The notes beneath the pieces were generated by a model. The model did no database searches. It was given only the letters and a program-made list of their open reading frames with translations, and had not been told where the DNA came from. Shown one piece after another: positions 18,800 to 22,452 of a DNA stretch of 33,768 nt. Source of the stretch: a virus. The stretch lies in UHGV virus genome UHGV-0181805; one strand, written 5' to 3'. The first letter of the stretch is position 1. Each line of letters begins with the position of its first letter. The translations under genes and the position numbers were made by a program.

Positions 18800-19540
18800 T
18801 TATTTCGTAGGGAAAGATGTGATCACATCAACGATGGGCTGGATTGAAAATCCAATACCAATTCCGGAGTTAGCATTCAGCGACATCATGTCCGAAACAA
18901 TCTGTAGCGATCTACCAAACATGTCCGCCATTTGCCCGAAATTAACACCCATGATCTCAACACTTCCATGCAGACTTGCTGAAGAAAGATATTGTCGCAG
19001 TTGGGCTATTTCTTGGCTGAAAGCATCAGCCTGATCGCCCATTATATATCTACGCTGGGTGACGATACCTACTAACTCTCCCGAATCTCGATCAATAATA
19101 GGTCCTCCTGAGTTCCCCCCATTAACCATTCCATCAAGCGTAAATCGGCCATGCTCCATCGGTGCTGAAATAATTGCCTCACTTGTTAGTAACAGAGGTA
19201 TCCCATGCGGGTATCCTGCAAAAATTACTTTTCTGCCCCTGGATGGAGCAAACCCAGCAGATGGTTGAAGGACTGTTCTTCCGCCAGGAAGGGGGGATTG
19301 CAATTGCATGATAGCAAAGTCGTTACTACCATCAACATGCAAAATTTTAGCGTCGATACTCTCATTTGCTTCAGTTTGAAGAATGACGTCATTGATTTGA
19401 CACTCGGTTTGTAAGTCACAACAGGTGGCCACAACATGCAAGTTAGTTACAACTAGGTTTTCTCGCATGAAACTGAACCCGCTACCACGAGACTTACCTG
19501 CAATGACCTGAAATGTTGCGTTGGCTAAGTTTTGATGCAT
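18800..19540 (-). CDS. Trypsin-like (S1 / HtrA-type Trypsin_2) serine protease, cytoplasmic, no PDZ domain
   Basis: 246 aa; catalytic-triad motifs TNLHVV (His), NDFAIMQL (Asp), GNSGGP (Ser) in canonical order; no signal peptide; about 90-aa C-terminal extension. Confidence 0.8.
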   Translation of the reverse strand: MHQNLANATFQVIAGKSRGSGFSFMRENLVVTNLHVVATCCDLQTECQINDVILQTEANESIDAKILHVDGSNDFAIMQLQSPLPGGRTVLQPSAGFAPSRGRKVIFAGYPHGIPLLLTSEAIISAPMEHGRFTLDGMVNGGNSGGPIIDRDSGELVGIVTQRRYIMGDQADAFSQEIAQLRQYLSSASLHGSVEIMGVNFGQMADMFGRSLQIVSDMMSLNANSGIGIGFSIQPIVDVITSFPTK

Positions 19541-19652
19541 TGAAATCCTCCGATTCTGGTTAGTGGAATTTCATAATGAACTCATTTCCCAGAATAATTG
19601 ATATATCACATCAATTCACGCCCGGAATATTCAATACACCAATTGGCCCGTA

Positions 19653-20090
<438 letters not shown>

Positions 20091-20246
20091 TAAGGCAGGA
20101 GGTTCATCTTTCAGTGGCTGCCAGTGTTATTTCCCCACTTACTGGCTTGGGTTGTTTCGTGGTACTGCCGTTAACTGGTGGCCCAGAATAAATTCCGGTT
20201 TCATTATCAAGCCCACCCGTAGATGGGCTTTGTAATGCCTACATGG

Positions 20247-20810
20247 TTAAATGATTTGCCAGTCTTCTGCTAGAACATCAGTCTGACTAGCCAGCCACGG
20301 TACTAATTTATCGTCCGCTGTCTTCATGCAAATGCATGGCAGCGTCACAAGGCCATTAACTCCGTCCAGGTCACACTCAAACCCCCAAGCATTCTGCTGG
20401 ATAATGAACAGATACATCCCCTTACCATTCCAGCCAGCACGGGCAACTTTATTCCCCAACTTGAGCGCTTCAATGGCAAGGCCGAAACTTAGCCCTGATA
20501 CCGGACGATAAGCCTTTTCGAATACTTCTTTTGGACTCCAGCTAACGTAGCCATCAAAGCGATCGGTGTTAGGTTTTCCGCCATCAAGATATTCAACCAG
20601 ATAGCCTTCATCCTCGCCGTTTTCTCCGGCAGGAAGCTGCCAGCCACGAAAATCGTTATATGCCTGTCTCGTCATCGGAAAGGCGTTAATCAGTTTTACG
20701 CCAATATGCTGGGTCATAAAATTACCTATAGAGTTGGGAATAAAAAGCCCCGCATCGCGAGGCTCATTAAATGGACTTTGTGATTTGCAAAACGTGTTTA
20801 TTTCAGGCAC
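20247..20810 (-). CDS. Two-domain phage protein with DUF2829-like C-terminal domain (possible Tad2-like anti-defence); true start may be Met32
   Basis: C-terminal ...[32 protein letters not shown]... fits the ALK.GKKV.R.GWNGKGM motif I associate with DUF2829; directly downstream of Rz. Confidence 0.55.
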
Positions 20811-21268
20811 TGCTCTTTGATGTATTCCTGCAGATAGCCAACCTGCTTCGTCACTGTGACGATTCGCTCTCTGAGGGTGAAATAATCCCGTTCAGCGGAG
20901 TCAGTAAGTCGGGGGCCGGTAACATCGCCCAGGCCGCCGGTGCTGGTCGTTCCGTTCGCGGGACAGTTTGCGTTGAGCTGCAGCCGCTTACGGCCAGCAA
21001 TGACATCGCTATGCAGACGCTCAATGGTTTCTTTCGCATCAGCCAGTTCTCCGGTGTATTTGGCATCCAGTGCAGCGACATCACGCTGGCGGGTCTGCAT
21101 GTCTTTAATGGTGGCGGTCGCCAGGAGGAGTTTCTCAGTGGCCTTATCGCGCTGGTCTCTGTAAGTGATGGCGTTGTCGCGGTAGTGGTTCACGAAGAAA
21201 GCCAGTGCGCCGATTAACGCCAGCACCAGCAACTGCAGCCAGTAACGCTTAACCAGTGCGCTAATCAT
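20798..21268 (-). CDS. Rz: Spanin inner-membrane subunit Rz
   Basis: N-terminal TM helix, then ...[15 protein letters not shown]...[22 protein letters not shown]...RDYFTLRER... matching recalled lambda Rz. Confidence 0.85.
20851..21039 (-). CDS. Rz1: Spanin outer-membrane lipoprotein Rz1, embedded in Rz in another frame
   Basis: 62 aa from internal Met: [20 protein letters not shown] with lipobox, Pro-rich mature part; fully nested within Rz. Confidence 0.7.
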
Positions 21269-22130: not shown

Positions 22131-22154
22131 AATAAAAAACCCGCTCAAGGCGGG
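22131..22154 (-). terminator. Intrinsic terminator between tRNA genes and holin (tR'-like)
   Basis: Minus-strand CCCGCcttgaGCGGG followed by TTTTTTATTTC. Confidence 0.6.
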
Positions 22155-22210
22155 AATGTTAGGGTGTGGCAATGTCAGCTCTGCGGCTGAAGATACCCTG
22201 GCTGGGTTTT

Positions 22211-22286
22211 TGGTGCCGGTTAACGGATTTGAACCGCTACCTATTCACTTACAAGGCGACCGCTCTACCATTGGAGCTAAACCAGC
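22211..22286 (-). tRNA. tRNA-Thr (anticodon UGU)
   Basis: Hand-folded 76 nt: acceptor GCTGGTT/AACCGGC, D arm GCTC..GAGC with G18G19, anticodon loop CUUGUAA, T arm AGCGG-TTCAAAT-CCGTT, encoded CCA; one G.A mismatch in anticodon stem. Confidence 0.65.
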
Positions 22287-22291
22287 ATGTT

Positions 22292-22366
22292 TGGCGGGAC
22301 AGCGTGGACTCGAACCACGATAAGAAGGTTAACAGCCTTCCGTAATGACCTTTATACGACTGACCC
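22292..22366 (-). tRNA. tRNA-Asn (anticodon GUU)
   Basis: Hand-folded 75 nt: perfect anticodon stem GAAGG/CCTTC with loop CUGUUAA, T arm CGTGG-TTCGAGT-CCACG, encoded CCA; one T-T mismatch in acceptor stem and a weak D stem. Confidence 0.55.
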
Positions 22367-22399
22367 AAATAAAAAAAGCCACCGTTGCAACTTAAGAGT

Positions 22400-22452
22400 C
22401 ACTAACGGCAGCTTACCCTCTAATTATGGCTAAATGGCTAATTGCATGTCAA
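22400..22452 (-). promoter_or_regulatory. Candidate late promoter pR'-like just downstream of Q
   Basis: Minus-strand TTGACA (22447..22452) - 18 nt - CATAAT (22423..22428), immediately after Q stop; inferred by analogy to lambda pR'. Confidence 0.35.

Follow-up and report, generated by a model that had tools for sequence, protein, structure and literature searches.

The DNA analyzed here (the window: a stretch of 33,768 nucleotides, UHGV virus genome UHGV-0181805) belongs to a mosaic P22-like (Lederbergvirus) coliphage or prophage, and its closest relatives, E212, Kapi1 and CUS-3, are approximately 94% identical to it over 45–47% of the query. On the minus strand, the order of genes and signals begins with Q, a pR′-like promoter, tRNA-Asn, tRNA-Thr, a tR′-like terminator, holin, lysozyme and Rz/Rz1, and continues with a terminator hairpin, the gene under study, a 59-aa ORF, a Trypsin_2/S1 peptidase gene (246 aa), DUF2560, a 63-aa ORF, terS and terL. 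The Q gene matches PF06530, and the layout of Q and its promoter is the same as that of the annotated pR′ of Sf6. The gene under study encodes a protein with two domains, a Tad2-like domain preceded by an N-terminal domain that is referred to here as ND, and the spanin genes Rz/Rz1 lie immediately upstream of it in the direction of transcription, as a preliminary description of this DNA had stated. The coordinates of all features are collected in Table 1.

Table 1. Features of the ND-Tad2 locus, in positions of the window.
Feature	Position	Strand	Basis
CDS of 156 aa with two domains (N-domain and Tad2-like domain), TAA stop 20247-20249 included	20247..20717	-	Conserved start, annotation, PHROG 872
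N-terminal domain (ND), aa 1-74; small beta-barrel b-b-a-b-b-a-b, "sponge-associated" module	20496..20717	-	Predicted structure
Tad2-like domain (DUF2829, PF11195), aa 75-156	20250..20495	-	Pfam, PDB sequence matches, Foldseek, pocket residues
Hypervariable beta2-beta3 insertion of the Tad2 domain, aa 107-127	20337..20399	-	Homologue alignment; position of the insertion region of Li et al.
5′ extension of the maximal ORF	20718..20810	-	Overlaps the Rz stop at 20798; not conserved as protein; contains the terminator
Shine-Dalgarno-like AGGT, 6 nt upstream of ATG 20717	20724..20727	-	Read from the sequence
Intrinsic-terminator-like hairpin (9-bp stem) with UUUUUAUU tail, after Rz and before the gene	20737..20765	-	Terminator scan, RNA fold
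Rz spanin gene, immediately upstream in the late operon	20798..21268	-	Pfam PF03245, E = 1.2e-42
Rz1, embedded in Rz	20851-21084	-	ORF list
Late-promoter-like site TTGACA-18-CATAAT, just after Q	22423..22452	-	Promoter scan, 11/12 matches

The preliminary description had placed a gene for a 187-aa protein at 20247-20810. An ORF of that length is present on the minus strand, but it is only the maximal ORF, opening with a GTG that falls among the final codons of Rz, and the real coding sequence is the shorter one of 156 aa. In all 69 aligned homologues, which come from many genera, the first residues are M-x-x-(H/Y/F)-I-G at the position of ATG 20717. The additional 31 codons contain a hairpin (20765..20745) with a G+C-rich 9-bp stem followed by the T-run UUUUUAUU, which was detected by the terminator scan and folds at -15 kcal/mol (z = -3.74), a value that none of 200 shuffled sequences reached. 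The same ATG is the annotated start in PGAP (E. coli EC2001), in phage Louie and in phage Kapi1, where the homologue is longer solely through a larger internal insertion. The starts of the homologues, the spacing of the AGGT, the internal terminator and these three annotations therefore identify the product as a 156-aa protein, and it matches PHROG 872 over its full length (E = 1.3e-68). The 187-aa product was rejected because of the overlap with Rz, the terminator within the 31 extra codons, their lack of conservation and the other annotations; these codons are most likely the untranslated 3′ end of Rz and an intergenic leader. Automated Logan gene calls still carry the longer form (P0001, 95 members). 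Searches of NCBIfam and PADLOC with the protein gave no match.

The C-terminal half of the protein is a canonical Tad2/DUF2829 domain. Residues 75–156 match the Pfam family PF11195 "Tad2-like" with E = 1.4e-26 and a score of 93.2 bits, where 25 bits is the gathering cut-off, over profile positions 2–73 of 73. A DUF2829 signature had been suspected in this part of the protein from a short motif, which is indeed present in the translation, and the profile search and structural comparison that the preliminary description had called for both bear out the suspicion. With phmmer, seven solved Tad2/AcrIIA7-family sequences were found in the PDB (E = 3.6e-17 to 6.5e-14), the best being SPO1 Tad2 (3.6e-17), and ModTad2, HgmTad2/AcrIIA7 and SptTad2 were also among them. 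An AlphaFold2 monomer model of the protein, for which an alignment of 70 sequences served as input, had a mean pLDDT of 90, and all 24 significant Foldseek matches to this model in the PDB were Tad2-family structures (probability 1.00, target TM 0.63–0.87), including complexes with gcADPR, His-ADPR and cGG. PGAP names such genes DUF2829, and the family is already curated in Pfam.

The ligand pocket of the characterized family members is largely preserved. In SPO1 Tad2, 1′′-3′ gcADPR is contacted by W25, N26, I63, T65, D67, H71, W73, S76, T78 and D79 (Yirmiya et al., 10.1101/2023.05.01.538930), and in the phmmer alignment these residues correspond to W96, N97, M131, T133, D135, V139, W141, S144, T146 and D147. 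Eight of the ten are identical (W96, N97, T133, D135, W141, S144, T146 and D147), and four of them, W96, N97, W141 and D147, are invariant in the 70 sequences. The two substitutions are a conservative one, I63 to M131, and H71 to V139, which replaces a residue whose contact in SPO1 Tad2 is water-mediated. The gcADPR-contact motifs of HgmTad2, W21/N22/G23 and W87/L88/S90/T92/D93 (Li et al., 10.1101/2023.11.15.567273), match G-W-N-G and W-L-A-S-Q-T-D in the protein, a correspondence drawn by motif identity only.

The part of the domain that varies is the insertion between beta2 and the next core strand. This "insertion region" spans residues 36–59 in SPO1 Tad2 and residues 32–72 in HgmTad2, where it forms a second pocket for cyclic dinucleotides (10.1101/2023.11.15.567273), and in MoTad2 cUMP is bound at the same interface (10.1101/2025.08.24.671296). 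The insertion of the window protein has 21 aa, compared with 24 in SPO1 Tad2 and 41 in HgmTad2, so that the long insertion of approximately 41 aa that builds the cyclic-dinucleotide pocket is absent, and its sequence is unrelated to that of HgmTad2. Because the insertion is short and of the SPO1 type, a pocket for cyclic dinucleotides like that of HgmTad2 is unlikely in this protein. Among 69 homologues, the length of the insertion ranges from 18 to 38 aa, and its mean identity to the window protein is 12.5%, compared with 73–78% for the three flanking regions. The homologue P0002 is 100% identical in the N-domain and 93–94% identical in the flanks, but only 4% identical in the insertion. In this comparison the insertion behaves like an exchangeable cassette, and its hypervariability points to it as the place where the ligand specificity of Tad2 is likely diversifying. 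The gene was found in 45 of 5,426 complete E. coli genomes, with this variant present at full length in only 4; most of the E. coli matches listed cover only nt 1–252, at approximately 99% identity.

Judged by homology, the window gene is an ordinary member of the Tad2 sponge family, and the reading that we prefer, with a probability of roughly 0.75, is that its product is a Tad2-type sponge that would disarm a Thoeris-type system. By analogy with Tad2, residues 75–156 are expected to assemble into a homotetramer, whose inter-protomer pockets would bind and sequester an ADP-ribose-derived immune signal made by a TIR protein, and the Thoeris effector would then stay unactivated. As a first guess the ligand may be 3′cADPR (1′′-3′ gcADPR) of type I Thoeris, in view of the SPO1-like pocket and of how short the insertion is; the alternatives would be the type II signal, His-ADPR, and the type IV signal, N7-cADPR. 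Members of the Tad2 family have been shown to act against type I, II and IV Thoeris, against CBASS and against Pycsar (10.1101/2025.08.24.671296), and with so wide a range of ligands among them, homology does not reveal which one the window protein would bind. A type IV Thoeris system is native to E. coli (PMC13243611). Within this scheme ND would be a separate module with a binding function of its own, and the gene would be expressed from the Q-dependent late operon after the lysis cassette.

The preliminary description had also seen a separate uncharacterized N-terminal domain of approximately 100 residues. The separate domain stands; its size is nearer to 74 residues, the larger estimate being a consequence of the wrong ORF start. 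The small beta-barrel fold of ND is predicted with confidence, but no Pfam model and no PDB relative of it was found. An exhaustive phmmer search with ND (E <= 1e-3) returned 1,603 representative clusters, in which the domain occupies N-terminal, internal or C-terminal positions or stands alone as a small protein. In INPHARED it turns up in 137 phage records, most of them from phages of Proteobacteria, and these records include N4-like, Vibrio, Klebsiella, Pseudomonas, Rhizobium and Clostridium phages and crAssphage.

The partners of ND are dominated by sponges. Among the best 150 of the 1,603 representatives, the partner totals are Tad2 57, Sequestin 38 and Acb4 21, with ND alone in 10, and Pfam by itself finds Tad2-like in 53, PF21825 in 37 and PF13876 in 20 of them. 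Here PF21825 is Sequestin, a 3′cADPR sponge that was discovered through its fusion to Tad2 and Acb4 in Pfam architectures (10.1101/2025.07.12.664507), and PF13876 is Acb4, a sponge that sequesters the cyclic dinucleotides of CBASS (10.1101/2024.12.30.630793). When the same 150 proteins were parsed into domains, the architectures were ND-Tad2 (43), ND-Sequestin (18), ND alone (10), Acb4-ND-Sequestin (7), ND-Acb4 (6), ND-Tad2-Sequestin (2) and ND-Sequestin-Tad2 (2), and at least one known sponge domain was present in 102 of the 150, triple fusions included. The partners classed as "unknown" are mostly singletons, several of them frameshifted fragments of Tad2, and a Pfam search of ten of them added nothing. 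Recurrent fusion to known sponge domains, the criterion applied to phage sponges by Tal et al. (2025), is therefore what ND displays, and a Pfam-based screen for domains fused to sponges could not have seen it because ND has no Pfam model.

The conservation of ND does not depend on its partner. Of its 74 positions, 27 are at least 90% conserved overall and each of these is also occupied by the same dominant residue in every partner class, in a set that consists of top-scoring matches and is hence biased towards the query. The conserved residues are G6, K8, A12, M15, R17, Y20, N21, R24, W26, P29, E32, D36, G38, L40, V41, E42, Y43, D45, N50, G56, Y57, S59, W60, S61, P62, F66 and Y70.

ND is homologous to the N-domain of RyR-Tad (gp68). 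The two are 34% identical by BLASTP (E = 5e-6), the ND HMM scores the gp68 N-domain at 24.9 bits, and hhalign aligns them with a probability of 96.2% (E = 2.7e-9). A Foldseek search of BFVD also retrieved a RyR-domain protein of Yersinia phage TG1 (E = 3e-4, TMq 0.74). The gp68_N domain has diverged and is without R17, N21, R24, W26, E42, D45 and N50, while P0137, a full-length RyR-Tad homologue (E = 2e-27), has a canonical ND. With RyR-Tad (P0137) added to Tad2, Sequestin and Acb4, ND has fusion partners from four sponge families, all of them validated by experiment. In the RyR-Tad crystal the N-domain is a beta1-swapped dimer (10.64898/2026.06.04.730250), and ND itself probably forms such a dimer as well.

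Three identities proposed for ND were rejected. It is not Lockin or Acb5 on the basis of their described architecture and distribution: Lockin is a hexameric cog that is absent from INPHARED, and Acb5 is a tetramer found in the complete phage genomes of Streptomyces, Mycobacterium, Bacillus and Haloarcula viruses, whereas ND occurs in the INPHARED records given above, mostly of Proteobacteria phages. It is not the "head domain" of pdAcrIIA7 either, which is a two-helix hairpin, ND being a predicted beta-barrel. The described TadIV-1 is a dimer of the T4 family with a flexible N-terminal loop. The ND motif was not found among the tested Tad2 proteins in the portion of the supplementary tables of 10.1101/2025.08.24.671296 that was available, and a literature search found no experimental work on the window protein or on any ND-Tad2 protein. 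The literature searched contains no description of ND as a domain that combines freely with four sponge families and is conserved whichever of them it joins.

In terms of what ND does, we lean slightly towards a function of its own that goes beyond a scaffold, namely the binding of a further small molecule or of a defence protein. The competing view is that ND serves only as a structural scaffold for dimerization or stability, with all anti-defence activity residing in the Tad2 domain. It draws on the beta1-swapped dimer formed by the homologous N-domain in the RyR-Tad crystal, and on the finding that against type I Thoeris gp68_C suffices by itself and gp68_N by itself has no activity (10.64898/2026.06.04.730250). 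Since gp68_N lacks seven of the conserved residues, its inactivity is no test of a canonical ND. The only direct data on a domain of the ND type are these negative results with the divergent gp68 copy. An independent function is favoured over a pure scaffold because the four partner families (Tad2, Acb4, Sequestin and the RyR-Tad C-domain) each oligomerize alone, and with differing stoichiometries, and because ND also occurs by itself and at any position, with partner-independent conservation of residues many of which are polar or aromatic (K8, R17, Y20, N21, R24, W26, E32, D36, E42, Y43, D45, N50, W60 and Y70 among the 27 of 74). With these observations set against it, the scaffold is a rather unlikely full account of ND. 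Less probable again, and improbable by our estimate, is that ND inhibits by binding a protein, as Tad3–Tad6 do, and would block the TIR enzyme or the effector directly while the fused sponge removes the signal.

The preferred reading of ND as a module with its own function has a broader form, in which it would be a widespread and unrecognized anti-defence module that acts as a further sponge, as a signal-degrading domain or as a direct inhibitor of defence proteins. We offer this tentatively, at somewhat less than even odds. If it is true, ND-Tad2 proteins such as the window protein and N4 gp49, together with the Acb4-ND-Sequestin proteins, would be multi-warhead inhibitors with one extra target.

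The homologues in phages Louie, Huey and Mimir124 are labelled "anti-CRISPR protein," a label that arises because DUF2829 is similar to AcrIIA7. To our knowledge, the CRISPR-Cas systems of E. coli and its relatives are of type I and not of the Cas9/tracrRNA kind, so that the hosts would offer no Cas9 to block. A protein of the AcrIIA7 type would bind tracrRNA and block Cas9; tracrRNA binding by AcrIIA7 has been reported by Lee and Park 2026 (PMC13133391), and the core of the window protein does resemble AcrIIA7 in sequence (phmmer, E = 7e-15 to chain 9kzr and 1e-14 to chain 8kbi), which together with the database annotation is what speaks for this explanation. The layout described for pdAcrIIA7 is a two-helix head, a core and an extended domain (PMC13133391), and the window protein does not share it: both the head and the long extended domain are missing, the N-domain being predicted to be beta-rich and the insertion being short. 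In addition, no anti-Cas9 activity was seen for HgmTad2 or its homologues (Li et al., 10.1101/2023.11.15.567273). An anti-CRISPR function is, in view of these differences, very improbable.

As the gene directly follows the lysis cassette within a late operon that depends on Q, its protein is probably made alongside the late (structural) proteins. The promoter scan found no dedicated promoter between Rz and the gene, which would have been a sign of moron-type expression, and with the terminator-like hairpin upstream its expression would depend on read-through. In lambdoid late operons, Q-modified RNA polymerase passes such terminators, and transcription across the lysis genes into this gene is presumably Q-antiterminated read-through from the late promoter, by analogy with lambdoid biology. 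For sponges, early expression has been proposed as ideal (10.1101/2023.05.01.538930), and the late expression predicted here differs from that timing. Another reading has the gene as a passenger, silent or in decay, with no current function. It draws on the strong terminator-like hairpin directly upstream, which would cut the gene off from the late transcript, on the lack of a sigma-70-like promoter in the promoter scan and on several frameshifted or truncated homologues in the databases. This reading is hardly credible given that the reading frame of the gene is intact, that the ligand-contact residues and 27 ND positions are conserved, that near-identical intact copies occur in independent prophages and lytic-cycle isolates, that related lambdoid phages have annotated post-Rz terminators with late genes continuing downstream, and that Q-modified polymerase is generally known to read through such terminators.

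The slot between Rz and terS appears elsewhere with similar contents. In Sf6, which has the same layout, gene 66 lies between Rz and DUF2560 and belongs to the Acb4 family (PF13876, E = 3.6e-35), and an ND-Tad2 gene with 99.4% identity to this one occupies the same slot of an HK97-like prophage in E. coli EC2001. In the window, the slot also holds a rare S1-peptidase cassette that adjoins an IS remnant. The suggestion in the preliminary description that the post-lysis region is a cluster of accessory genes is reasonable on both counts, the sponge gene in the Sf6 slot and the peptidase cassette with its IS remnant here. In phage N4, gp49 is an ND-Tad2 protein and its neighbour gp48 is Acb4, and both genes adjoin the virion RNA polymerase gene, in a region that has been described for N4-like phages as an "anti-signalling hotspot". 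In P22-like phages, one sponge gene or another takes the slot between Rz and terS, an alternation that is not described in the literature searched. With Acb4 in Sf6 and ND-Tad2 here, the Rz-to-terminase slot of P22-like and lambdoid phages is a place to look for anti-signalling genes.

The assignment to Tad2 is routine but useful, as it corrects an inflated ORF call and the misleading "anti-CRISPR" label that is spreading in annotations of enterobacterial phages. ND is the more valuable lead, a highly conserved domain with no Pfam model, four validated sponge partners and a representative in the model phage N4. The fusion logic that yielded Sequestin applies to ND as well, and the isolated domain could reveal a new immune signal or target; we regard ND as a testable lead for a further anti-defence function.

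Among known systems, SPO1 Tad2 (Gp34.65; PDB 8SME, 8SMF, 8SMG and 8WJE) is of the same Pfam family and has the same fold, with 43–49% identity to the window domain in the Foldseek alignments and eight of the ten contact residues in common. It differs in being a single-domain protein of 89 aa from a lytic Bacillus myovirus, while the window protein carries the extra 74-aa ND and comes from a temperate P22-like coliphage, in whose late operon its gene lies; H71 of SPO1 Tad2 is V in the window protein, and the insertions, 24 aa and 21 aa long, differ in sequence. HgmTad2/meAcrIIA7 and pdAcrIIA7 (PDB 8KBI–8KBM and 9KZR) have the same DUF2829 core, and the gcADPR-contact motifs G-W-N-G and W-L-x-S-Q-T-D of HgmTad2 are found in the window protein too. 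The 41-aa insertion of HgmTad2 forms a cGG/cGAMP pocket where the window protein has 21 aa, and the 48-aa two-helix head domain of pdAcrIIA7 contrasts with an N-domain that is predicted to be a beta-barrel.

With respect to ND, the nearest system is N4 gp49 (YP_950527, 160 aa; PHROG 872), which has the same ND and Tad2-like architecture, is approximately 54% identical in ND, and also lies beside a sponge gene (gp48, Acb4); no experimental characterization of it was found in the literature search. N4 gp49 belongs to a lytic N4-like phage, where it sits in the hotspot by the virion RNA polymerase. RyR-Tad (gp68 of Pectobacterium phage vB_PatP_CB1) follows the same logic of an ND joined to a sponge, its homologous N-domain being followed by a gcADPR-binding domain. 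The C-domain of RyR-Tad has an all-helical RyR Repeat12-like fold (PF02026) instead of Tad2, and its N-domain is without the seven residues conserved in the canonical ND. Sf6 gene 66 (Acb4, PF13876) has its place in common with the gene studied here: it too is a sponge-family gene of a P22-like phage, lying after Rz/Rz1 and ahead of DUF2560 and terS. In fold and family it is unrelated to Tad2.

The slot between the Rz/Rz1 spanin genes and the DUF2560 gene is occupied by an ND-Tad2 gene both in the window (20247-20717) and in Kapi1, and by a gene of the Acb4 family in Shigella phage Sf6. Because the same slot holds either an Acb4-family gene or the ND-Tad2 gene, the comparison suggests that the lysis-packaging junction of P22-like phages is a hotspot for anti-signalling genes. 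In phage N4, two sponge-family genes lie side by side: RefSeq gp48 is an Acb4-family protein (PF13876, E = 8.8e-35), and RefSeq gp49 consists of ND and Tad2. The Pfam name 'N4 Gp49' is therefore at odds with the RefSeq numbering, in which the Acb4-family protein is gp48. The annotation of the ND-Tad2 gene across phage copies is also inconsistent as a result of the DUF2829 and AcrIIA7 history, with the label 'anti-CRISPR protein' used in recent records of phages Louie, Huey and Mimir124, and 'Thoeris anti-defense 2-like protein' used for the copy of Shigella phage Moonfish.

Coordinates of the features discussed, in the window or in the numbering of the compared loci
Feature	Location	Strand	Remark
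Acb4-family gene	L007 (Shigella phage Sf6) 2618-2998		between Rz/Rz1 and DUF2560 gene
ND-Tad2 gene copy of phage Louie	L001 639-1109		annotated 'anti-CRISPR protein'
gp48 + gp49	L005 (phage N4) 2609-3462		adjacent genes
beta2-beta3 insertion of Tad2 domain	window 20337-20399, aa 107-127	-	homologue comparison
8-bp hairpin AAGCCCAT/GTGGGCTT	window 20209-20230	-	read from sequence
S1/Trypsin_2 peptidase (246 aa) + upstream 59-aa ORF	window 18800-19832	-	
Q-holin interval: late-promoter-like site, two tRNAs, terminator-like hairpin	window 22140-22452	-	
tRNA-Asn	window 22292-22366	-	between Q and holin gene
tRNA-Thr	window 22211-22286	-	between Q and holin gene
terminator-like hairpin	window 22154-22140	-	between Q and holin gene

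Comparison of the window protein with 69 homologues shows the Tad2 domain's beta2-beta3 insertion to be hypervariable and cassette-like: its mean identity is 12.5%, compared to 73-78% for its flanks, and its length ranges from 18 to 38 aa. The related protein P0024, from a marine Haliea MAG, has the insertion type of the window protein at 67% identity, and its remainder is only ~65% identical. In P0194, a metagenomic ND-Tad2 protein of 354 aa, the insertion loop is interrupted by an HNH_3 + AP2 segment that is homing-endonuclease-like. In terms of other partners of ND, a helical segment of ~75 aa that lies immediately C-terminal of ND is common to the ND proteins P0185, P0205 and P0232, and is a possible further partner module; its only matches are weak, sub-threshold ones to TPR.

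The 8-bp hairpin is located directly 3' of the ND-Tad2 stop codon; it has no T-run on the coding strand, and the terminator scan made no call there. Further downstream of the Tad2 gene, and before the peptidase cassette, lies a ~95-bp segment (~19950-20045) with ~94% identity to the sequence that follows istB at the terminus of IS21-family IS100kyp copies; it resembles a solo remnant of an IS end. A 414-bp query that included this segment had matches, both chromosomal and plasmid-borne, in 3,408 of 5,426 E. coli genomes. The cassette of the peptidase and the 59-aa ORF is intact in only 21 of the 5,426 genomes, in some of which a Rha regulator lies beside it; among 50,697 phage records, essentially none carries it. 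The peptidase itself is similar to the protease domains found in defence proteins, with a match to RT-Protease_XI (E = 2e-15) and weaker matches to Avs1b and LmuA, and may be a prophage-borne effector of the defence type.

Upstream of the lysis genes, a late-promoter-like site with 11/12 consensus matches is found between the Q and holin genes. The arrangement of this interval in Sf6 and Kapi1 is the same as in the window, with a promoter-like site, tRNA-Asn, tRNA-Thr and a hairpin.
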